Shown here: piece after piece, positions 3,001 to 63,394 of the stretch
Numbering within the stretch: position 1 is the stretch's first letter
Layout: every line of letters begins with the position of its first letter
Source: a bacterium
GTDB taxonomy: Bacteria > Patescibacteriota > Minisyncoccia > Phycocordibacterales > Zambryskibacteraceae
Direction of reading: 5' to 3'
Assembly: GCA_030649135.1 (NCBI GenBank)
Contig: JAUSGI010000002.1
Location: 1 to 64,000 of the forward strand
Length of the DNA: 64,000 nucleotides
The notes under the pieces: generated by a model
The model's database searches: none
Seen by the model: the letters and a program-made list of their open reading frames with translations, nothing else
Told to the model about the DNA's origin: nothing
Made by a program: the position numbers and the translations under genes

Positions 3001-4229
3001 TTGGTAAAGAAATTGGTAGACGTGGCGTTAGAGGTCGTGCTATTGGTAGCGTCAAAGGAAGTGGCAGAGACCCGTGGCGCGCCAACAGAGCTGTTGAAGA
3101 ACGCGTGACCAGCCGCGTTCAGGGTCACGTTTTTAGCATCAATAATAAAGACTTCATCTGGATTTCCTAAAGTAATTTTCCCACCGGCTGAGAAACTGCC
3201 CAATACTCCGAGCGAACCGAACGAACCACTCATGGCTATAACGGCGCTACCGACTTCTAACCCGCCACGTATCGAGACATTTTTTTGTATATCTAGATTG
3301 CCTTTAACAACTAAATCACTTTGGGTAGTAACAATATCTTCAAAGTAAGCCCGACCGATAACTTTCAGGTCTCCGCCGACTTCGAGAGTTGAGAGCAGTT
3401 TGGTTGCTCCCCTTACCAAAAGAGTTTTTCCAACTTCCACATTGCCTTCTAACTTTACATTCTCTCTGGTCATGGAGCCATTGGCAGTCACAAACGCGAG
3501 AGTGAAGTCTGTTGAACTGGCACCCCCTATGAATTCGGCATTCAAATTTTTAACTAAAGTTTTTGAATCTACCACGATGGGCGCAATACCATCTTGAATG
3601 TAAGACCTCAATTGACCCTCGGTCTCGATATGTCCCATAATGGCAACATTGCCTTCGCTATCCAAAAGTAGAATCTCGTTTTGATGAGTACCGGGACGGA
3701 AACCTAAGACAGTATTCGCATCATTTATCGAATCCCTAACAAAGTTAAATGATTTGTCGAAGAATCCAAAAACAATCGGCACCGGTAATAGCGCAAGCAA
3801 GAGCAGAGAAGCGAGCGTCGCCGCGATAAGTAACCTGCTCGATAACACAACTTTAAACGGAGAAAAGCGGGAATGAAATTTTTTATCGATGACTCTCTCA
3901 AGTATCAGCCCGATATCAGGGATAACCGTATTGGAAGAAACTTTTTCAGTTTTATTTTCTACTGAGGATTGCTCTTCGTATTTATTGAAGTCGGTATGAG
4001 GTGACTGGGACGATTCAAGAGACCGGAAATTTCCGTTCTGAACTTGAGCCCGAATCATCTGCTTCTTCATGTAATCATCTAAAACAGGCTTGGTTGTATA
4101 CCAAGCATTTCCAATTTTTTTTGAAGTCAGTTTTTTCTTACGGGCAAGTAGACTCAAATATTCAGCACTGTAAGGAACATGGTGCGCCGCCTCAGACATT
4201 GAAAGCCAGTTTTCAGCTTCGTTTTTCAT
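1..4229 (-). CDS. Giant surface fibre/adhesin-like protein, partial. The C-terminus lies beyond the window start. It has an N-terminal HTH_17-like segment and tail-fibre-like GNVGIGTTSP repeat modules.
   Basis: A minus-strand ATG at 4229 opens a frame (coordinate mod 3 = 2) with no stop down to position 1. The ORF track omits it because its stop is outside the window. The N-terminus reads MKNEAENWLSMSEAAHHVPYSAEYLSLLARKKKLTSKKIGNAWYTTKPVLDDY, which matches the excisionase/MerR-type HTH pattern. The motif G-N-V-G-I-G-T-T (revcomp of gtgccgatgccgacgttgcc) is in frame at about 119, 403, 862, 1321, 1441, 1908, 2158 and 2718. Long Ser/Thr/Asn tracts separate the repeats. Confidence 0.7.
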   Translation of the reverse strand, partial: MKNEAENWLSMSEAAHHVPYSAEYLSLLARKKKLTSKKIGNAWYTTKPVLDDYMKKQMIRAQVQNGNFRSLESSQSPHTDFNKYEEQSSVENKTEKVSSNTVIPDIGLILERVIDKKFHSRFSPFKVVLSSRLLIAATLASLLLLALLPVPIVFGFFDKSFNFVRDSINDANTVLGFRPGTHQNEILLLDSEGNVAIMGHIETEGQLRSYIQDGIAPIVVDSKTLVKNLNAEFIGGASSTDFTLAFVTANGSMTRENVKLEGNVEVGKTLLVRGATKLLSTLEVGGDLKVIGRAYFEDIVTTQSDLVVKGNLDIQKNVSIRGGLEVGSAVIAMSGSFGSLGVLGSFSAGGKITLGNPDEVFIIDAKNVTLNAAGHAFFNSSVGAPRVSATSFDATNSTTSNATSTNFFTNTFTSLFSTITSLIADDITVGALTATNSTSTNSTTTNAIITNATTTNLAVSDNLFTSLTLGSVPFIGASGLLTQNNADFFWDDATSRLGIGTNTPESTFNIIQTTNGVNIFNARRITDVAPSGDFIEYTNAAGDEVLFRVDNSGNLLAGGIITTGSQTITSTSQPQFRVQYDASNEWTSSVGSTGTTTFAFNGTTPRAIFIPASDRTDTFQFQNAAGLAVLSIDTTNQRVGVSTTSPWAKFSIGTHNLSTTLPAFVIASSSDAVATTTQFIVTNGNVGIGTTSPSATLAINPASDTRSLYIEDQDGSPSVAVATIRRPNNNSSPAISNALLRLIDHSSNYPLSIEDHSGNSLLAVRGNGNVGIGTTSPYAKLSVVGGTSGTVIAADAITGFTGNLLDLKVASTTKFSINQAGDIFSSGSTTLQNFTFANATGTSATSTNLFSTNFEAINASTTNLLTQNILSYASSTFQNLTFLNSTSTNATTTNFFSTTASSTNLYSSLLTVGGTGLVVDSSRNVGIGTTTPWGLLSVNPNGISGPSFVVGSSTATNFIVTNVGNVGIGTTSPYARFALHAGALDTYNANLFLVSSSTAAFSTTTLFSIDALGLATIKNLLVTSSSTFQNATSTNLFSTTASSTNLYSALLNSGSATFANLLVKASSTLQNFTFNNATGTSATSTNLFSTTASSTDLYSTLLTVGGTGLVVDSSRNVGIGTAGPSFKLDVNGSIRSGSTVASHFYNATYSVPVSTAVTINLYDGVSILQAGYQYRIKLVTQITGTPTGAVYIVYRTAVGTWVARMVSANGTTSNHPLLQVSGTSVQIYHNHATLTYSIGVFVEGFNDGNTSGPSDATFFGLEGAMTNLSGNVGIGTTSPDTSLDVVKTGSGKTWATTAGTVALFDRSSTAGAAAYISVISGNTGLARLQLGDTDSEAQGLVQYNNSLSALSLWTSALQRMTIDSSGNVGIGTTTPWGKLSVTQTGTAGAPAFIVEDSASPDTSPFIIDQ

Positions 4230-9401: not shown

Positions 9402-11867
9402 TCAGATGCTAGCTCCGTGGCACTTCTTGTATTTCTTGCCGCTACCGCAAGGGCATGGGTCGTTTCTACCAACTTCGGCTTTGGGAGAAACGGCTGAACG
9501 TGAGGTATCTGAGAGTGTCGTGGCCTCTACTGCTATGGGAGCCATCTTAAAAGAAGTGAGCGCTTCCAGATTGATAGCAATAACAAATTCGGCAATCTGC
9601 CGAGCAATGGACACTTCCATATCTCTGAAAAATCTTAAACCATCTTTCTTGTACTCCACCAGAGGGTCGCGTTGACCATAGGCACGCAAATTCACGCTCC
9701 CGCGCAGATATTCCATCATCTCCAAGTGGTCAACCCAGAACAAGTCTATGGTCTGGAGAATCACCCTCCGCAGAACCTCGACTACTTCTGGAGTGTCAAG
9801 GGACATCTGTGACATTTTATTATTTACCTTATCCGTCATCTCTTGGTCTAAATGCTCCGCTACCTCGACTAAATATCCTTTGATTTCAGCCTGACCACCG
9901 ACCAAAACTTTGCGACGGTGGCCATAAATAATACCCCGTTGAAAATTTAGTACGTCATCGAACTCGAGCACATGTTTCCTAGCATCAAAGTTGAAACCCT
10001 CTATTTTTTCTTGCGCCTTTTCAAGAGAGTTCGTTATAAGCTTGTTTTCTATGGGTTCGTCTTCGGGTATGTTGAAGCGTCCCATCATCTTTTTAATGGC
10101 ATCCACGGCAAAAATACGCATCAAAGAATCCTCCAGAGAAACAAAAAACTGCGTCTCACCCGGGTCTCCTTGCCTACCGGAGCGTCCACGTAACTGATTA
10201 TCTATACGCCGAGCATCATGCCGCTCGGTACCAAGGACAAACAGACCGCCAAGTGTCCTAATGTCTTCATAAGCCCCCCGGGCAGCGGGATTACCGCCAA
10301 GCTTAATATCAATGCCACGACCGGCCATATTGGTGGCAAGCGTTACAGCCCCTCGCTTACCGGCTTGAGCGATAATCTCGCCCTCTCGTTCATGGTTCTT
10401 GGCGTTTAAGATTTCATGTTTGATTCCCTCGTTCTTTAAATAAGTCGAAAGAAGTTCATTGTGTTCTATAGAGACCGTACCGATGAGAACCGGCTGGCCT
10501 ATTTTGCTCAACTCTCCGACTTTTTTAGCCACCGCTTTCATCTTGCCGGCTTGCGTTTGGAAAATCTGATCGCCGTGGTCCGTGCGGGCCACCGGTTTAT
10601 TGGTCGGGATAACAAAAGTTTCTAAGCCATAAACTTTATAAAATTCTTCTTTGGAAGTAACAGCGGTGCCGGTCATGCCGGAGAGCTTCCGGTACATACG
10701 AAAATAATTTTGGAAAGTGATACTGGCGAAAGTGCGGCTCTCTTCCTTAATACCCACGCCCTCCTTGGCCTCTATGGCTTGATGCAAACCTTCCGACCAT
10801 CTCCTGCCGGGTTGCAGACGACCGGTAAAGGCATCCACGATGACCACCTCGTTATCTTTGACTACATATTCTTTGTCTCGCTGATACAGAGACTTGGCCC
10901 TGACAGCTGTCTCAAGATGATGCACATATTTGACGCCGCCTTCGGCGTAAATATTTTCGATTCCCAAGGATTTCTCGGCCTTATTTAACCCATCATCCGT
11001 CAAAGAAATGGCGCGCAGCTTTTCGTCAACTGTAAAATCTGGACCCTCTTCAAGCCCCCGAGCAATCTTGGCAAATTTTTCATATAGTTCTCCGGCAGTA
11101 CCGGTATTGCCGGAAATAATGAGAGGCGTCCGCGCCTCGTCAATCAGAATGGAGTCTATTTCGTCAACAATAGCGTAATGGTAGTCCCGTTGGGAAAGAT
11201 GTTCCTTATTATAAAGCAGGTTATCACGCAGATAATCGAAACCAAATTCATTGTTGGTACCATAGGTAATATCCGCCCGATAAGCCTCTTGCTTGGTGGC
11301 CGGCCTCAAGAACTCATGAACCACGCGGAAAGAACCAAGTTCATCACGTTCTTTATCTTTCTCCATATGAGACTCGTCATAAATAAAAGACTCCGCATGA
11401 TTGAGCACACCCACGGACAGGCCAAGATAAGCATAAATTTCTCCCATCCAGACAGCGTCACGGCGGGAGAGGTGGTCATTAACCGTCACTATATGTACCC
11501 CCTTACTCATAAGAGCGACGAGGTAAGCAGGTAGTGTCGCTACCAAGGTCTTACCTTCTCCCGTTTTCATTTCCGCGATTCCACCTTTGTAGAGAGCAAT
11601 GCCACCAAGAAGCTGGACATCAAAATGTCTTTGCCCGAGGGTACGCTTAGCCGCCTCCCGCACAACGGCAAAAGCTTCCGGCAATATATCGTCCAGAGTT
11701 TCACCTTTAGCGATACGGCTTCTGAATTCGGTAGTTTGGGCCTTCAGCTCTGCAGGCGAGAGATTCTCTAGCGAAGATTCGAGCGCATTCGTGCGCTCGA
11801 CAATCGGTTTCCAAGACTTAAGTAATTTCTCCTCGGGAGTACCGAAAAGGCTCTTAAAAAAGGCCAT
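9402..11867 (-). CDS. secA: Preprotein translocase ATPase SecA
   Basis: Walker A GEGKT in the DEAD motor; full-length SecA architecture; C-terminal zinc-binding [14 protein letters not shown]. Confidence 0.95.
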
Positions 11868-55220: not shown

Positions 55221-56246
55221 CTACCTCGTTAAGAATTGAGGCGCAATTTCATTAATAACCTTGCGGGCTAAGATTTTAGGAGTAAATTCTTGCTGGTATA
55301 GCTGGTAAGCATGTTCCGCAACTTGTTCAAGTTCTTTCGGGTGACCCCTTAACTCAACAATCTTACGAGCCAACTCACGATAACCCCCCGGTGGCACGGT
55401 AAAGCAGGTTTGGTTATCGGCGAGAAACTCCATCACACCTTTATTTTCTCCAGTAAGATACGGGAGTTTCATCGCCATGCTTTCAAAAACTTTATGTGGA
55501 ATCGTGGTGTGAACCCGCGGATGATTAGCTAATTGTCCAAGCGACAGGTGACATTCCGTCATTTTTTGTCGCAATTCATCTATGGGAAGTCTCGTAGTAA
55601 CAAGTTCGAGATTCTTGGGTTTAAGCTCATCTATCAATTTTTCAATTTCTTTTAACAGTAAACCACGACCAATAATTCGGATTTTAATATCTTCTTGCTC
55701 TAACTCTTTGGCCGCCCGAACGACAACTTCTGCCCCAGCTTCTGGCAGAAACATGCCACGGAAAACAACAGTAAATTGTTTTAATTTGGCAATGGCGGGG
55801 TCAAAGTAAAATTGTTTATCGTCCGTCCCAACGAAGTGGACCGAGATTTTGTCCGGATTAATTCGGAAAATTTTGACCACTAAATCTTTTTGAGACTGAC
55901 ACTCAAGAAATACCTTATCGGCCAAACTGAAAGCCAGGAAATCTATTAGCCAATATCGCACCAGATTCGCGCCCCGGGATATCACCATGCTGTCATAAAA
56001 AGTGGCCAGAGCATTGTATATAATTCTTTTTCTGGTAAAAAATCTAAGAAAGATAATTAAGATACTTGAGGCGTAGCCTATCATTACTAAATCACTCTCT
56101 GGTTCCAGATTACGAAAGTCTTTCAAAAGCTTGCAATATCCATTAAAGCCGAGCTCTTTGACTTCTACTCCATTTTCTTTTAAACCCATGACGGTAATCC
56201 GGTCTCGCGGATTATCGAGTTTGAAGCTCACGTAGCAGATTTTCAT
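55221..56246 (-). CDS. Glycosyltransferase (GT-B, GT4-like)
   Basis: C-terminal nucleotide-binding domain FRGMF... IIGRG... KVFESMAMKLPYLTG. Confidence 0.65.
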   Translation of the reverse strand: MKICYVSFKLDNPRDRITVMGLKENGVEVKELGFNGYCKLLKDFRNLEPESDLVMIGYASSILIIFLRFFTRKRIIYNALATFYDSMVISRGANLVRYWLIDFLAFSLADKVFLECQSQKDLVVKIFRINPDKISVHFVGTDDKQFYFDPAIAKLKQFTVVFRGMFLPEAGAEVVVRAAKELEQEDIKIRIIGRGLLLKEIEKLIDELKPKNLELVTTRLPIDELRQKMTECHLSLGQLANHPRVHTTIPHKVFESMAMKLPYLTGENKGVMEFLADNQTCFTVPPGGYRELARKIVELRGHPKELEQVAEHAYQLYQQEFTPKILARKVINEIAPQFLTR

Positions 56247-57184
56247 AATTCTCGCGCCAACTTATCCATGAGTAGATTAAGGCTGTGGTCTTCTACCTTG
56301 AAGTTTTTTAGGTCCGGGTTCCTAACTTCGAGCTTCATCCCGCAAGCGGCAGCTTCAATTATTGTTTTATCCATACTTCCGGCAGGAGTGAAGTTGGCGT
56401 AAGTTTCGTGTGTTTGGTAAAGCTTGAGAGCCTCGACTTGATTTACCGGTCCGATGAATTTGATTTTATCGTTAAGATTTTGCTTTACACGTTCTCCATA
56501 TTCCTTATCATCCGGCAAAATAGGCCCGGCAATAGTTGCAGTATATTCGGTACCCCCGACCCAATCAATGAACTCTAAAACCTTCTTTACCGGAGAAATG
56601 CGGCCTAGGAAAAGAACGGAATTAGGTATTCTCTTTACACTTGGGTCAGGTTTGAAAAAATCAGTATCTATACCAGCGGGCATCAATTTAGTCTTTTTGA
56701 ATCTGGCAGTATAAGAACTCGGCGAAGTGCAGAAAACTTTATCTGAAAGTAATACGGCCATACGAGTCCATAAATTCCCCTTCGCATGATTCCTCCACAA
56801 ACATACTTTCTTGCCCATTAGCCACCACGATTTCCAACCGAGGATGACATACTCTTGATTCATGTGCACAAACACAGAATTATAATTTCTCCTCTCCCGC
56901 CAAATATATTCATAAAATCTGAAAATGTATTTGAATCTAGACCGACCACCCTCTTTGCCAAGAGATAGTACCTTAACATTTGCCGGTAAATGATAGCTCC
57001 CCCGTGAAATAATTTTTCCTCCAGAAAAATTATCGCCTTGCGATATTTCACGGGGTGAACCCCTCTCAAGACAGATTACTGTCACAAACTCAAATCGCTT
57101 AGCAAACTCCCGTACCCAGCGTACAAAGAAACCAAGCACAGGATTATTCTCGTCTAGTGATTGTGTAATTATTAGTAATTTCAT
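56243..57184 (-). CDS. Glycosyltransferase (GT-B, GT4-like)
   Basis: FLGRISPVKK... EAAACGMKL. Confidence 0.6.
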   Translation of the reverse strand: MKLLIITQSLDENNPVLGFFVRWVREFAKRFEFVTVICLERGSPREISQGDNFSGGKIISRGSYHLPANVKVLSLGKEGGRSRFKYIFRFYEYIWRERRNYNSVFVHMNQEYVILGWKSWWLMGKKVCLWRNHAKGNLWTRMAVLLSDKVFCTSPSSYTARFKKTKLMPAGIDTDFFKPDPSVKRIPNSVLFLGRISPVKKVLEFIDWVGGTEYTATIAGPILPDDKEYGERVKQNLNDKIKFIGPVNQVEALKLYQTHETYANFTPAGSMDKTIIEAAACGMKLEVRNPDLKNFKVEDHSLNLLMDKLAREL

Positions 57185-57529
57185 GTGGAGGGCCTTGTGA
57201 AATACGATTTGAGCCTGTTTTTTGTCGATTCTACAGCCCCCTTCAAGTGTTGCTCAAATCGTAATTCAATATCATTAGTATACCCGACATAAAAATTTCC
57301 ATCTTTTTGACTCTGTAGAACATAGACGTAGAATTTTTCATCAAATACAGACATGATATTGAATTATTTCACTGGGCAAGTCCAACGATGGAAAAAACCC
57401 AAAATAGGGTCACTTTTATCGACTTTCTGGGTGATCACCAGCAGTTTCATTGGATTTCCTCGCTCCTATTTTCTTATATGCGGAAGGTTAAACCTTGCGT
57501 ATTGGTCTTACTTCCATCATAATTCTAGT

Positions 57530-58195
57530 ATGACACGCCCAATTATATTATCAATCGGAGAATTTTATCACATTTATAATCGTGGCACTGAAAAAAGAAA
57601 GATTTTTTTATCCAAACATGACTACGAACGTTTTATAGCTCTTCTCTATCTTTGTAACTCCACTATCTCCGTCCGTATAGACATGCGACGCAAATCTTTA
57701 GATGAAACCCTCGATACTGACCGTGATAAGAATCTGGTAGATATTGGTAGCTACTGTTTAATGCCCAACCACTTTCATATTCTACTTAAAGAAAGAGTTG
57801 AAAATGGTATTAGCCTATTTATGCAAAAATTAACTACGGCTTATACTATGTATTTCAATAAAAAATACGAACGTAACGGATCTCTTTTCCAAGGAACTTT
57901 TAAGGCAGAGCATGCGGATAAAGACAGTTACTTGAAATATCTATTCGCATATATTCACTTAAATCCAGTCAAACTGATTGAACCCGAATGGAAGAAGGTG
58001 GGTATCAAAAACCGCACAAATGCTAAGCAGTTTCTGAGAAATTACCCTTATTCTAGTTATTTTGAATATACCGGAATCGACAGAAAATGGAAGACTATTC
58101 TAACGCCTAAGGCGTTTCCAGACTATTTTGATACTACCGATGGCTTTCAGAAAATGATTGATTACTGGCTTGAGTTTAGTTCTGAACAATCCTAG
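57530..58195 (+). mobile_element. IS200-like/REP-associated tyrosine transposase (Y1 HUH) gene, copy 1
   Basis: YHIYNRG, the HUH motif CLMPNHFHILLK, GSLFQGTFK and the catalytic-Tyr region YLFAYIHLNP. Flanked by AAGGTT-A/T-AACCTT palindromes (57485-57499; 58206-58220) and a 33-bp direct repeat (57408-57440; 58228-58260). The track's longer N-terminus (57353) reads as junk. Confidence 0.75.
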
Positions 58196-58266
58196 TGTAG
58201 TGCGTAAGGTTTAACCTTGTTCAAAAAGGTCATTTTTATCGACTTTCTGGGTAACTACCAATAATC

Positions 58267-59550
58267 TCATTGAGTTGGTGTGTCTGGGGTCTTTTCCGCA
58301 TTTTCAGTTTGCTCTTCTTTTTTCATAAGTTCAAATGCTTGGCCGAGATATCTCAATACATGGTGCCCGACAAGATAATGGAATAGGAGGCCAACCAGTC
58401 CGGCAAGAATGACGAGCAAGAGGAGATAAACGAGATTGTCTTTGATAAATTTGCTAATAAGCGATGACGACGAGACTGCCGCTGTGACATCTCTGATATT
58501 GCCGGCCTTATCGAAGACTCGCACCATAACGTTTAAGTCGCCGCGAGCGAGCGGTATCTGAAAAGGACTCTCCGTTTGGACAAAAACGGGGGAGACGGTA
58601 ACTGGTTGGCTTTTATCAATTATTCCGACCTCATAATAATCCACTCCCGACAGATTATCCGTAGTAAAGAAAGAGATTATCGACCGTTCGACCAAATTCA
58701 CCGCTGCCAACAAATAACTAACTTCCGGTTTGAAGTCTGCCGGCGGGACAGTGTCAATTCTTATCAGAAAATGCCCAGTCGTCCCCCAGACTCCATTTTT
58801 ATTGGCTTTAATATGAAAATACCATAAGCCATCGGCCAAACTTTCAAACGCTTCTGAAGTCTCGTTGGCAGTAATGGAGTTCTCTGGGATTGTGGATGGT
58901 TTATCATCCAAAATATAACTAAATCCCGAAACGCCGGCATCCCGATCCCATGAGATTACCGGACTGTCATTGTTGTACCACTCACCCTGGAACGGATGGG
59001 TCTCCGAGAAGACCTTCACCCCTTCCGGAGCCTTCGGCACAATCGCATATTCCGCCCTGCCCAACTCTACTTCGGCTTCCGTACCTTGGCCATCATTCAA
59101 GAGTACTTTTGAATTAGCGCCAAAAGAGACCGTTGCCCAGCCAGTCCTCTTGGCTTTAAAAGTGATTGTCCCCACTAAACCGGAGTTCGTAGTAATACCG
59201 TCCGGTATGACACCGACATAACTGGCCGTACCGCGAGTGTTATCGTAACTTGGCGGTTCCACCCAGACACCGATAATAGAGAGGCCGCTCGACGGTTTTA
59301 TGATTTCCAGCTTATCTTTGTCGAAGTTAACCCTGATTTCAATACCATTGATTTCGGCGCCGTCTGTATCGACTAGAATCGGGATATTGAAGGTTGAGTT
59401 CTCGACAAAGCTGGCGGCACGGGGAGAGAATGAAAGTTCGATTTTCGGAATTAATTGCGAGACATCCAGAGAGACTGTCTCGGCGTATGTATGAGACCAG
59501 ATGAGAGCCGTGAGAACAAACAGTAGAAGTATTCTTGAAATACGTGCCAT
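58267..59550 (-). CDS. Cohesin-domain surface protein with signal peptide and C-terminal TM anchor
   Basis: Signal peptide MARISRILLLFVLTALIWSHTYA. The N-terminal ~140-aa beta domain parallels the next gene (SVGDTFSV... LSF... LQV pattern). A second beta module resembles the 60489 gene. C-terminal TM helix LVYLLLLVILAGLVGLLF followed by a charged tail. Confidence 0.6.
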   Translation of the reverse strand: MARISRILLLFVLTALIWSHTYAETVSLDVSQLIPKIELSFSPRAASFVENSTFNIPILVDTDGAEINGIEIRVNFDKDKLEIIKPSSGLSIIGVWVEPPSYDNTRGTASYVGVIPDGITTNSGLVGTITFKAKRTGWATVSFGANSKVLLNDGQGTEAEVELGRAEYAIVPKAPEGVKVFSETHPFQGEWYNNDSPVISWDRDAGVSGFSYILDDKPSTIPENSITANETSEAFESLADGLWYFHIKANKNGVWGTTGHFLIRIDTVPPADFKPEVSYLLAAVNLVERSIISFFTTDNLSGVDYYEVGIIDKSQPVTVSPVFVQTESPFQIPLARGDLNVMVRVFDKAGNIRDVTAAVSSSSLISKFIKDNLVYLLLLVILAGLVGLLFHYLVGHHVLRYLGQAFELMKKEEQTENAEKTPDTPTQ

Positions 59551-62580: not shown

Positions 62581-62691
62581 ACTAAGTAATTATACAACAT
62601 AGTAACTGTGCAGAATATATAGTACCGAGTACTGAAAGCCGAGAGCTTTAGACTCTCACTAATACTGTATACTTATAGATATCTCCCAAAC

Positions 62692-63360
62692 ATGAGAAAG
62701 GAACCTATCATAACAAACCATTATTATCACATTTATAATCGAGGAGTGGATAAGCGTGACATATTTAGCGATATAAAAGACCTTAAACGTTTTAAAGAAA
62801 GTGTAAAACAGTTCAATCAAGTCGATGGCATAGGTAGCCTGGAACTATATCGCAAATCCGTGAGAGCTTTAGGCTCTCACTTTGAATTGAAATCGAAACC
62901 GATTGTGGATATTGTCGCCTTCTGCATAAATCCTAATCATTTTCATTTTATCTTAAAACAACTGGAGGACGGCGGAATAGCAAAATTCATGCAGAAATTA
63001 CTCGGTGGATACACATATTACTTTAATCAGAGACATGCACGTTCTGGTTCATTATTTCAAGGAACATTCAAGTCTAAACTAATCAACCACGATGACTATT
63101 TTAGAAAAATATTTGCGTATGTAAACCAAAATTATTCTGTTCATAACATACCAAAAAATAAATCAATTTTTATTTTTGCAAGCAATACAGAATACGAGAG
63201 TGGGCATTTTGATTTTGTTTCTAAAATCGAAGGACAGGAAATGTTAAAAATTTTTGGTGGAAAAAATAATCTTAAAAAACACTGCGAAGAAATTATATCT
63301 ATTATTCGAAAAGAACGTGGCAAAACTTCTCTAGAAGAACCAGACGAACTGCCTATGTGA
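62692..63360 (+). mobile_element. IS200-like/REP-associated tyrosine transposase (Y1 HUH) gene, copy 2
   Basis: YHIYNRG, HUH motif INPNHFHFILK, GSLFQGTFK, FAYVNQNY. Flanked by hairpins GAGAGCTTTAGACTCTCAC (62640-62658) and GTGAGAGCCTAAAGCTCTCAC (63360-63380). The latter is the exact reverse complement of an internal copy at 62867-62887. Confidence 0.75.
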
Positions 63361-63394
63361 GTGAGAGCCTAAAGCTCTCACTAAACAAACGATC

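Follow-up and report, generated by a model that had tools for sequence, protein, structure and literature searches.

A direct repeat that brackets a Y1/HUH transposase-like gene is probably the start of a neighboring host glycosyltransferase (GT) gene, copied when a hairpin-bounded cassette carrying the transposase gene entered the overlap between a cohesin gene and the GT gene; the hairpins are the cassette's own. The locus lies in a window of 64,000 nucleotides, by which we mean the whole stretch of DNA that was analyzed. The original prediction had treated the repeat and the palindromes beside it as one structure. The two appear instead to be independent, as the palindromes travel with the gene and the repeat belongs to the host. 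The prediction was right that this repeat is not the usual short target duplication of a transposon and that host sequence is duplicated around the inserted gene. The empty site that it proposed to look for also exists: in three related Patescibacteria lineages, represented by six contigs (L012/L013, L014/L015, and L016/L017), the cohesin and GT genes overlap and no transposase gene is present. The features of the locus, in window coordinates, are as follows.

56243..57184, minus strand: working glycosyltransferase gene, 313 aa, with 72% protein identity to the L012 GT and conserved synteny
57181..57354, minus strand: truncated GIY-YIG gene, 57 aa (Pfam GIY-YIG, E 6e-10)
57379..57452, minus strand: left repeat copy (fragment 2), matching the L012 GT start
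57453..58227, plus strand: putative inserted cassette, ~775 bp, the interval between the repeat copies; the junction is empty in L012, L014, and L016
57479..57499: left flanking hairpin, TGCGGAAGGTTAAACCTTGCG, folding at -6.4 kcal/mol (z -4.8)
57518..57523, plus strand: -10-like box CATAAT, 6 nt upstream of the ATG
57530..58195, plus strand: Y1/HUH transposase-like gene (RAYT copy 1, hereafter copy 1), 221 aa (Pfam PF01797 Y1_Tnp)
58201..58221: right flanking hairpin, TGCGTAAGGTTTAACCTTGTT, folding at -2.6 kcal/mol (z -1.0)
58223..58272, minus strand: right repeat copy (fragment 1), putative ancestral cohesin/GT junction
58267..59550, minus strand: cohesin-domain surface protein gene, 427 aa (Pfam Cohesin), with homologues 70–74% identical

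The direct repeat and the cohesin/GT junction

As predicted, a 33-mer is present as a direct repeat on the plus strand at 57408–57440 and 58228–58260. These are its only two copies in the 64-kb window, and 0/100 shuffles produced a match. The copies differ at four positions, an identity of 29/33 and not 28/33 as first given. The repeat extends to ~50 nt (57403–57452 versus 58223–58272) with 80% identity, 10/50 positions being different, and it contains an exact 19-nt core, TTTTATCGACTTTCTGGGT. The host duplication that flanks the cassette measures 45–50 bp. When the 200 nt to the left of the left hairpin are locally aligned with the 200 nt to the right of the right one, the score is 50, compared with 16.6 ± 2.5 for shuffled flanks.

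Alignment with relatives indicates that the direct repeat corresponds to the first 14–16 codons of the downstream host GT gene and is not part of the cassette. Read on the minus strand from 58270 to 58228, fragment 1 (ATGAGATTATTGGTAGTTACCCAGAAAGTCGATAAAAATGACC) translates to MRLLVVTQKVDKND, which equals GT codons 1–14. In another frame it reads LNEIIGSYPESR followed by a stop, a match to the cohesin C-terminus of L012 (LNETSSNHPESR and a stop), and this peptide would be the ancestral cohesin C-terminus. Fragment 2 carries GT codons 1–24 (57450 to 57379, MKLLVITQKVDKSDPILGFFHRWT), then CPVK and a stop; the 33-mer lies within its first ~45 nt. Among the GT starts of the three relatives used for alignment, that of L014 agrees with fragment 1 at 39/43 nt, and that of L012 with fragment 2 at 66/72 nt and 24/24 aa (L012 peptide MKLLVITQKVDKNDPILGFFHRWT). 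Over 43 nt, fragment 2 and L012 share 39/43 positions, and the two fragments share 35/43 with each other. Synonymous bias between the repeat copies was considered as a sign of separate coding histories and set aside, as the eight differences are spread 3/2/3, counts that are too small.

In all six contigs of the three lineages, the GT ATG lies 32–41 nt inside the cohesin ORF with nothing between, and neither a Y1 nor a GIY-YIG gene was found at this junction. The lineages keep the gene order dockerin, a 26x-aa gene, a 27x-aa gene, cohesin, GT, and a downstream glycosyltransferase/methyltransferase cluster, and the order in L012 is that of the window, gene for gene. The nearest relatives have ~70–75% protein identity, and the empty site is defined by synteny and a conserved junction sequence rather than by a near-identical cassette-free strain. 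The ancestral state would be a cohesin gene that ends 32–41 nt inside the GT gene.

The original prediction saw in the 33-mer either a unit of a genomic repeat or a site used for the insertion of the transposase gene. That the repeat directly flanks the inserted unit and that its 19-nt core is exact would suit this reading. The repeat is, however, a GT coding start whose role is conserved in relatives, and neither idea is borne out by a search for other copies. There is no third copy of the 33-mer in the 64-kb window; the 19-mer core has only two matches among 185,579 species-representative genomes, in Methanoperedens and Bacteroidota, which are unrelated phyla and not true matches (~4 are expected by chance on our estimate, in a collection that does not contain the source genome); and a 25-mer of the repeat has 0 matches in JGI metagenomes. 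Five homologous cassettes occupy other, unrelated contexts without a flanking repeat. For example, no flanking direct repeat was found at L004, L007, L018, and L023, where scores of 16–17 compare with shuffled means of 16–18. At the protein level, no duplicated N-terminus of a neighboring gene was found at L004, L007, L035, the second Y1 copy of the window, or the L012 Y1 gene, and no other fetched homologous locus contains a repeat-like sequence. A repeat unit or attachment site is therefore very improbable, and the direct repeat appears to be a local insertion scar of host sequence, not a member of a dispersed repeat family.

Barely credible is the notion that the element itself ends in these direct repeats, or that the layout is an assembly artefact. 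It draws on the symmetric-looking layout, of which the predicted order repeat-palindrome-gene-palindrome-repeat holds and the symmetry of spacing does not (26 nt on the left versus 3–8 nt on the right). The repeat is absent from five homologous cassettes, and its sequence matches a host gene in cassette-free relatives. An artefact is unlikely because the copies differ at 10/50 positions, and an independent Logan assembly (L001) reproduces the same repeat and cassette structure. Scans of the window for tRNA and Rfam families detected no tRNA or known RNA gene at the locus, so the repeat is not the duplicated end of such a gene. A role as promoter or terminator was also rejected, as the terminator-like stem at 57411–57396, in fragment 2, is GT coding sequence common to all relatives.

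The Y1 cassette and its hairpins

The limits of the cassette, placed at the ends of the host duplication, are accurate to about 5–10 nt on each side. From left to right it comprises a 26-nt spacer, the left hairpin, a promoter-like region, the Y1 transposase-like ORF, and the right hairpin. The hairpins are 722 nt apart, compared with 709–749 nt in hairpin-gene-hairpin units elsewhere. With promoter, ORF, and both hairpins, the family's unit measures roughly 750–775 bp.

The gene begins at the ATG at 57530, not with the 280-aa ORF that starts at 57353, and the gene call on the Logan contig agrees. Its product matches Pfam PF01797 Y1_Tnp (E 2.4e-10, 41 bits, cut-off 23). Against the NCBIfam RAYT equivalog NF047646 it scores 41.8 bits where the cut-off is 80 (copy 2 scores 31 bits), so that the label RAYT is only loosely justified, with membership of the wider Y1_Tnp family upheld. 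An HUH motif, PNHFH (H81, H83), and YIHLNP (Y141) are invariant in 22 aligned homologues, which points to a Y1/HUH enzyme with Y141 as the predicted catalytic residue. There are ~8000 homologues, and those with a source name belong to Patescibacteria or to unclassified bacterial MAGs. The copy 1 protein by itself had no match in the PDB; the family profile gave marginal matches, the best to ISDra2 TnpA (E 0.05) and another to E. coli TnpA-REP (E 0.34).

A TATAAT or CATAAT box precedes the ATG by 6–7 nt in 5/5 cassettes (window, L004, L007, L018, and L023). In the window, the 3' half of the left hairpin, TTGCGT (57495–57500), lies 17 nt upstream of this box. A simple promoter scan made no call at CATAAT because the -35 element is weak. 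The transcript of copy 1 may be leaderless or nearly so.

The window contains a second Y1 paralogue, copy 2, less than 5 kb away and 42% identical to copy 1, which is flanked by its own, different palindrome. Copy 2 and the Y1 gene of L012 occupy the same syntenic spot and were considered as orthologues, an idea rejected because they are only 35% identical. A rule that the cassette is always antisense to its neighbors was likewise dropped, as it is true at five loci and fails in L018 and L023.

Both predicted palindromes exist, at coordinates 1–3 nt from those first given. Their cores are AAGGTTAAACCTT at 57484–57496 and AAGGTTTAACCTT at 58206–58218, with no other match in the 64 kb at up to one mismatch, and the extended palindromes are TGCGGAAGGTTAAACCTTGCG (57479–57499) and TGCGTAAGGTTTAACCTTG (58201–58219). 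Both are degenerate copies of a 23-nt family hairpin, TGCGCAAGGTTAAACCTTGCGCA, a consensus built from L004, L007, L018, L023, L035, and L037. This hairpin stands on both sides of the homologue in the first five of these and was seen on one side only in L037; hairpin and homologue thus occur together in at least six unrelated genomic contexts, and homologues with this hairpin family are 64–75% identical to copy 1. In the hairpin alignment 92% of cells pair, compensatory changes affect 4/10 pairs, and the covariation score was reached by 0/500 shuffles. The hairpins may be direct or inverted relative to each other (L004 versus L023). Solitary copies occur at 11/17 metagenome loci, 3–4 of them inside ORFs; these loci are unassigned to genomes. 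No further copy was found in the 64-kb window at up to four substitutions, and the palindrome had no match among viral contigs. The motif GT[AG]G is not conserved 5' of the hairpin: 16 aligned 5' flanks share only a T, and GTAG precedes only the right hairpin of the window.

Outside the hairpins the cassettes share no conserved sequence. These comparisons indicate that the hairpins are part of the cassette and cognate to a Patescibacteria-wide family of Y1/HUH (IS200/RAYT-type) genes. The hairpin-bounded cassette behaves as a mobile unit: it turns up in unrelated contexts, and relatives lack it at the syntenic site. The window copy itself is probably old or immobile, because its hairpins are decayed. 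The right one is the more degenerate, with a stem of only 5–6 bp and a loop that is the reverse complement of the left loop; for comparison, the L007 hairpins fold at -12.2 and -17.6.

Nested insertions and the duplicated gene start

The cassette separates fragment 1 from fragment 2, and neither fragment is the start of the working GT gene. The repeated segment is present a third time, in diverged form, as codons 1–24 of that gene (MKLLIITQSLDENNPVLGFFVRWV), beyond the truncated GIY-YIG gene, whose stop codon overlaps the working GT start codon (ATGA). The GIY-YIG product has 57 aa in the window versus 86–87 aa in relatives (compared with L004, L007, and L014). The gene appears to be a second insertion, at GT codon 24/25, and fragment 2 is severed by it from the rest of the GT gene. 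The 5' 72 nt of the working gene match fragment 2 at 41/72 and L012 at 46/72 positions, and the remainder of the gene is ~78% identical to L012; identity shifts at the point where fragment 2 ends. On the other side, the cohesin stop codon overlaps the ATG of fragment 1, and comparison of C-termini shows the 3' end of the cohesin gene to be frameshifted relative to relatives. For annotators, the 280-aa, 28-aa, and 57-aa GIY-YIG ORFs at this locus are best read as products of nested insertions.

The preferred explanation is as follows. The ancestral overlap segment would have begun a few nucleotides upstream of the GT ATG and ended shortly after the ancestral cohesin stop. The cassette now occupies the cohesin/GT junction with this segment on either side of it: the copy beside the cohesin gene kept the cohesin 3' end and stop, and the other kept the GT start and gained AGGAG/GAGG-rich sequence upstream. 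From this one locus we infer that only an insertion that duplicates the overlap could spare both genes, which would explain how long the repeat is and where it ends. At a later time or independently, for the order of the two insertions is our reconstruction, the GIY-YIG gene would have landed at GT codon 24/25, again with a fresh copy of the GT 5' end, so that the GT start is now present three times. If the Y1 protein acts like IS200/IS605 TnpA and TnpA-REP, it would bind and cut the hairpins on single-stranded DNA. IS200/IS605-type Y1/HUH transposases are not known to leave target duplications, and the duplication is therefore not simply attributable to the enzyme. Candidate routes are fill-in of a staggered break, an earlier tandem duplication, recombination between insertions that lie close together, and integration of a circle carrying a GT 5' segment.

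Simple duplication in situ followed by neutral decay is hard to reconcile with the observation that the non-working fragments are better conserved against relatives (91–92% identity) than is the working GT start (64%). It could instead be that the cassette was imported from a diverged donor already joined to a GT 5' segment, so that one repeat copy is native and one foreign. Import could have gone through a recombination intermediate, either circular or linear, that used homology within the GT start to integrate, by a Campbell-type event or by homology-facilitated illegitimate recombination. The GIY-YIG gene and the diverged GT 5' end inserted with it would then reflect a second such event. 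An origin of this type would explain why the repeat copies are only 80% identical, why each fragment is nearer to a relative (39/43 for fragment 1 with L014 and for fragment 2 with L012) than to the other fragment (35/43), and why GT codons 1–24 are 64% identical to L012 versus ~78% for the rest, with the shift at the end of fragment 2. These comparisons involve small numbers, 43–72 nt; a donor with such an arrangement was not found; the Y1 protein and the truncated GIY-YIG are the only candidates at the locus for an integrase or recombinase; and the same pattern could result if a non-coding copy decayed faster and the constraint of dual coding was lifted. Import is unlikely, and copying of the GT start upon entry of the cassette into the overlap remains our preferred reading.

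A broader proposal, which we regard as quite doubtful, is that, in the tightly packed and overlap-rich genomes of Patescibacteria, small selfish cassettes of several kinds (Y1 hairpin, GIY-YIG, and bare hairpin) insert at gene junctions in a manner that systematically copies or replaces the junction sequence and so spares both genes. The window would then record two nested junction-duplicating events and three copies of one gene start. Two more such events would be seen in L014, where an 11-nt duplication comprising the 3' end and stop of a gene surrounds a hairpin element, and a GIY-YIG gene is flanked by a duplicated ATGAAT start. This would amount to a "target-restoring" mode of insertion, undescribed for HUH or GIY-YIG elements; a literature search on overlap-restoring insertions returned nothing relevant.

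Comparison with known systems

The REPtron, reportedly described by Nunvar in 2010 and Ton-Hoang in 2012, is a RAYT or TnpA-REP gene with its cognate REP palindromes on either side (PMC6006769; PMC5581495). According to PMC6006769, REPtrons do not transpose as a whole. The window locus resembles a REPtron in that its protein has the HUH and Y..NP motifs of Y1/HUH enzymes, a single specific palindrome stands on either side of its gene, the palindrome differs between paralogues (that of copy 2 is its own), solitary palindrome copies occur elsewhere (11/17 metagenome loci), and the two hairpin loops are in inverted orientation. It differs in that the protein scores 41.8 bits against a RAYT cut-off of 80, and the family profile matches TnpA-REP at only E 0.34; in that the family lacks a conserved GT[AG]G 5' of the hairpin; in that the other 63 kb of the window hold no dispersed palindrome copies; in that the unit turns up in unrelated contexts, with relatives lacking it at the syntenic site; and in that two diverged copies lie within 5 kb. 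RAYT genes are characterized as single-copy, vertically inherited, and immobile, whereas the window has two paralogues, and copy 1 is absent at the syntenic site in three lineages. A literature search on RAYT genes in Patescibacteria returned nothing relevant.

Similarities to IS200, the tnpA-only form of IS200/IS605, are a unit of ~0.7–0.8 kb with a single Y1/HUH gene, subterminal hairpins near both ends with no terminal inverted repeats, and ISDra2 TnpA as the best solved-structure match of the family profile (E 0.05). The distance from hairpin to presumed end is asymmetric in the same sense as in IS608, 26 nt on the left and 0–8 nt on the right; in IS608 these distances are about 19 and 10 nt. 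Unlike IS200 transposases of about 130–150 aa, the window protein has ~220 aa with a long conserved C-terminal extension. The same hairpin stands at both ends, in direct or inverted orientation, and the 64-kb window has no near-identical copies, the only other copy being 42% identical. IS200/IS605 elements are not known to duplicate their target; a 45–50 bp host duplication surrounds the window copy, and four other cassettes have none. Elements of this family insert 3' of a fixed tetra- or pentanucleotide that pairs with a guide beside the hairpin; for the present cassettes one empty site, defined by synteny, was obtained.

Integrative elements in gene ends, such as phages and islands in the ends of tRNA or protein genes, are also flanked by a repeat of that end and leave reading frames intact. 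In contrast to these, the locus lacks a tyrosine or serine integrase, the repeats are 80% identical rather than an identical core, the repeated segment coincides with a two-gene overlap, and this site is not used by other cassettes of the family.

Most of the observation is accounted for, and the repeat appears to be neither a new repeat family nor a new attachment site. Classical RAYT genes are regarded as fixed and domesticated. The locus, with its empty site in three relatives, provides a clean, dated example of the mobile behavior of Y1 genes bounded by hairpins in Patescibacteria. It also suggests that insertion into a two-gene overlap can be tolerated through duplication of the overlap, which bears on how gene starts and short "orphan" ORFs are read in streamlined genomes.

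The direct repeat and palindromes around the Y1/HUH gene

The window contains exactly two copies of the 33-mer that frames the Y1/HUH gene (57408-57440 and 58228-58260), and matches to it appear in 0/100 shuffled sequences. Both copies of the 33-bp repeat in the original prediction are thus present, with an identity of 29/33 rather than 28/33. The similarity reaches about 50 nt (57403-57452 versus 58223-58272, 80% identical) and includes an exact 19-nt core. Local alignment of one flank against the other scores 50, compared with 16.6 +/- 2.5 for shuffled flanks. Two small palindromes (57484-57496 and 58206-58218), which extend to TGCGGAAGGTTAAACCTTGCG and TGCGTAAGGTTTAACCTTG, are the only ones in the 64 kb. 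The arrangement of repeat and palindromes around the gene, as first noticed, holds in the window and is identical in the Logan assembly of SRR13727527. Scans of the window for tRNAs and Rfam families were negative.

Features of the locus and of copy 2, in window coordinates
56243-57184: working glycosyltransferase (GT) gene, starting MKLLIITQSLDENNPVLGFFVRWV; its first 24 codons repeat the GT start for a third time
57181-57354: truncated GIY-YIG gene, 57 aa versus 86-87 aa in relatives
57450->57379, minus strand: fragment 2 (left repeat copy), encoding MKLLVITQKVDKSDPILGFFHRWT
57530-58195: Y1/HUH transposase-like gene (copy 1), 221 aa, between the two palindromes
58270->58228, minus strand: fragment 1 (right repeat copy), ATGAGATTATTGGTAGTTACCCAGAAAGTCGATAAAAATGACC, encoding MRLLVVTQKVDKND
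62641-62660, 62860-62881, 63360-63381: palindromes of copy 2, on its flanks and, once, inside its ORF

A hairpin cassette carrying a Y1/HUH gene

The 221-aa protein scores 41 bits against Pfam Y1_Tnp (cut-off 23) and 41.8 bits against the NCBI RAYT model, below the cut-off of 80. Its relatives number about 8000, those with a named source being Patescibacteria or unclassified bacterial MAGs, and the top non-self match is 75% identical. The HUH and Tyr motifs are both invariant in the family, whose profile matches ISDra2 TnpA (E 0.05) and TnpA-REP (E 0.34) marginally. Homologous loci of 64-74% identity (L004/L005, L006-L011, L018, L023, L035 and L037) occupy neighbourhoods unrelated to one another. 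The neighbours are a TPR/202-aa gene with an adjacent Laminin_G gene, the toxin-antitoxin genes HicB and PemK, a TPR gene with AbiEii next to it, or, downstream, a gene with an N-terminus that appears tgt-like in our reading.

These loci share a palindrome, either TGCGCAAGG-NNN-AACCTTGCGCA or a version with compensatory changes, e.g. GTGCGAGG...CCTCGCAC. It is found about 25-50 nt ahead of the start codon and again 10-35 nt past the stop codon (at L037 the downstream copy alone was seen). The hairpin-to-hairpin distance is 709-749 nt, and 722 in the window; no sequence outside the hairpins is conserved between the loci compared. Among 16 aligned hairpins, 92% of hairpin cells are paired, 4/10 stem pairs have changed on both sides, and the observed covariation score is reached by 0/500 shuffles. 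Judged by sequence comparison, the palindromes belong to the Y1 gene and not to the host.

A TATAAT or CATAAT box lies 6-7 nt before the ATG in 5/5 cassettes. Its distance from the 3' half of the hairpin upstream is 17 nt in the window, 17 nt in L004 and 15 nt in L007. The position of the box suggests a leaderless transcript with a promoter overlapping the hairpin; a simple promoter scan did not call this promoter. The window's two hairpins are decayed, folding at -6.4 and -2.6 kcal/mol versus -12.2 and -17.6 for those of L007. When metagenomes were scanned for the hairpin's 20 specified bases, 17 loci matched. In 6 of them the hairpin adjoins a Y1 homologue, and in the other 11 it is solitary, mostly intergenic, with 3-4 within ORFs. 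Therefore REP-like dispersal exists somewhere; the window's other 63 kb hold no dispersed copies.

Copy 2 (62692-63360) is 42% identical to copy 1 and is flanked on both sides by a palindrome unlike that of copy 1, of the GTGAGAGCTTTAGGCTCTCAC type. Its third palindrome, inside the ORF, encodes VRALGSH in a variable region of the protein. The distinct palindrome fits the TnpA-REP rule of one palindrome type per paralogue (PMC6006769). Copy 2 and a Y1 gene of L012 (1148-1825) occupy the same intergenic spot, between a 173-180-aa gene and the dockerin gene, and their proteins share only 35% identity. A Y1 gene is absent from this spot in L014, and the L016 contig ends at it. The two genes seem to have inserted independently at one hot spot.

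Y1 cassettes also nest in one another. At L024 438-1432 and L033 12423-13417, a cassette with different palindromes (CCGCAAGGACCGTCCTTGCGG) lies next to or in a remnant of a copy-1-type cassette, of which the C-terminal 47 aa and two GCGCAAGGCGAAACCTTGCGC hairpins are left. Upstream of the Y1 gene of L004 (3821-3980), a 64-nt unit in tandem duplicate holds both the family palindrome and a second hairpin type, GCAAGAACGGTTCTTGC; the latter recurs near a solitary family palindrome in L020. In front of several hairpins, part of the 5' arm is repeated in tandem, e.g. CGCAAGGT + GCGCAAGGTTAAACCTTGCGC, and tandem-arm or doublet features are found at L025 ~10137-10170, L026 ~1417-1525 and L007 4686-4726. 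The L026 pair, 74 nt apart with a third, different hairpin between, looks like a doublet.

The repeat as the start of the glycosyltransferase gene

The sequence places the direct repeat with the host. No flanking repeat occurs at the other cassettes compared, and nothing like it in the homologous loci examined. The right-hand neighbour is a cohesin-domain protein (best homologues 70-74% identical), and the gene order around it is kept in three lineages (L012/L013; L014/L015, Candidatus Zambryskibacteria; L016/L017): dockerin protein, two ~260-aa genes, cohesin protein, GT, then a glycosyltransferase and methyltransferase cluster. L012 matches the window gene for gene, including the second glycosyltransferase, epimerase and methyltransferases. 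The GT gene of all three lineages starts 32-41 nt within the cohesin ORF, with no Y1 or GIY-YIG gene between the two; this is an empty site, as the original prediction proposed to look for. In the window the cohesin-to-GT distance is 1082 bp.

On the minus strand, each repeat copy reads as the GT start. Fragment 1 matches that of L014 at 39/43 nt, and fragment 2 that of L012 at 66/72 nt. Fragment 1 is located at the ancestral cohesin/GT junction and, in another frame, still encodes LNEIIGSYPESR*, the C-terminus of the relatives' cohesin (L012: LNETSSNHPESR*). The 3' end of the window's cohesin gene (58267-58345) is frameshifted versus the three relatives, and now terminates at a TGA that shares bases with the ATG of fragment 1. 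The repeat thus covers the ancestral overlap almost exactly: it begins a few nt ahead of the GT ATG and ends just beyond the old cohesin stop. The view that host sequence was duplicated around an insertion is borne out by these matches. A genomic repeat unit, also proposed, is contradicted by the scans, which gave two matches only in species-representative genomes (unrelated phyla, no more than chance expectation) and none in JGI metagenomes. A site-specific attachment site is likewise largely ruled out, since the other cassettes compared lack the flanking repeat and the repeat is the GT start.

In fragment 2 the GT sequence ends after codon 24 and gives way to CPVK and a stop; the truncated GIY-YIG gene comes next. 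The stop codon of the GIY-YIG gene overlaps the ATG of the working GT gene. Over its first 24 codons, the working gene matches only 41/72 nt of fragment 2 and 46/72 nt of L012; beyond them its identity to L012 is ~78%. The locus thus records a nested pair of insertions in the 5' end of a single gene, both accompanied by a fresh copy of that end. The dead fragments are 91-92% identical to the relatives' GT starts, versus 64% for the working start over the same codons; the GIY-YIG gene may have brought the working 5' end with it. There is some support for integration of DNA that already had a GT 5' segment of another lineage: the non-working fragments are closer to the relatives than the working start is, and the identity drop of the latter ends at codon 24, but the compared stretches are too short to decide.

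The working GT gene carries an in-frame 60-nt insertion (57000-57064; 20 aa, RGSPREISQGDNFSGGKIIS), absent from the three relatives, which forms a strong branched hairpin (-19.4 kcal/mol, z -7.3) with perfect 12-bp arms, CCCCGTGAAATA/TATTTCACGGGG. These match the arms of an inverted repeat around the truncated GIY-YIG ORF (57181-57377), with CCCAGTGAAATAATT upstream of the ATG and TATTTCACAAGG in the 3' end. The GIY-YIG genes of L004 and L007 are similarly bracketed (GGCCGTTAGAGACA / TGTCTCTAACGGCC, 3' arm within the ORF), which suggests that GIY-YIG genes and mini-hairpins form autonomous/miniature pairs.

Proposed mechanism and comparison with known systems

By analogy with its family (PMC6006769), and with IS608/ISDra2 and E. 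coli TnpA-REP, the Y1 protein would recognise its cognate hairpins on single-stranded DNA and would cut and rejoin at them via its HUH/Tyr centre. The cassette is inferred to end 26 nt beyond the left hairpin and 0-8 nt beyond the right one, distances compatible with IS200/IS605 geometry. IS200/IS605 chemistry is not known to make target duplications; therefore the 45-50 bp duplication needs another cause. In the most economical reading, insertion into the overlap would be viable solely with the overlap duplicated, and selection would therefore explain the limits of the repeat. The duplication could have come about by filling in of a staggered break, from a tandem duplication already in place, by recombination between two insertions close together, or by integration of DNA already bearing a GT 5' segment from another lineage.

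At L014 2943-3040, an 11-nt direct repeat (TGGACAGGGTA) duplicates the 3' end of the dockerin gene beside its stop and encloses a ~73-nt hairpin element with 25-nt arms. In the 3290-3305 region of L014, the next gene's start, ATGAATAAG, stands ahead of a GIY-YIG gene, in whose 3' end the working start ATGAATCAAAATAAA lies. These duplications are similar to that of the window on a smaller scale, and they keep alive a general 'junction-duplicating' mode of insertion in compact genomes, to which we assign a low probability.

The finding is mostly ordinary. What remains odd is a long host duplication around a type of element expected to make none, seen again in the second nested insertion.

The cassette resembles REPtrons in having cognate palindromes on both sides of its gene, paralogue-specific palindrome types, and solitary palindrome copies elsewhere. 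It differs from RAYTs in that its protein stays below the NCBIfam model cut-off, no GT[AG]G guide lies 5' of the hairpin, and the gene is neither single-copy nor present at the syntenic site in relatives. Its size, lone Y1 gene and subterminal hairpins recall IS200, whereas the 220-aa protein, the identical hairpins in either orientation (direct in L004, inverted in L023) and the lack of near-identical copies do not. The unit is filed as a Y1/HUH hairpin cassette, of a kind between IS200 and REPtrons, and not as a certified RAYT.
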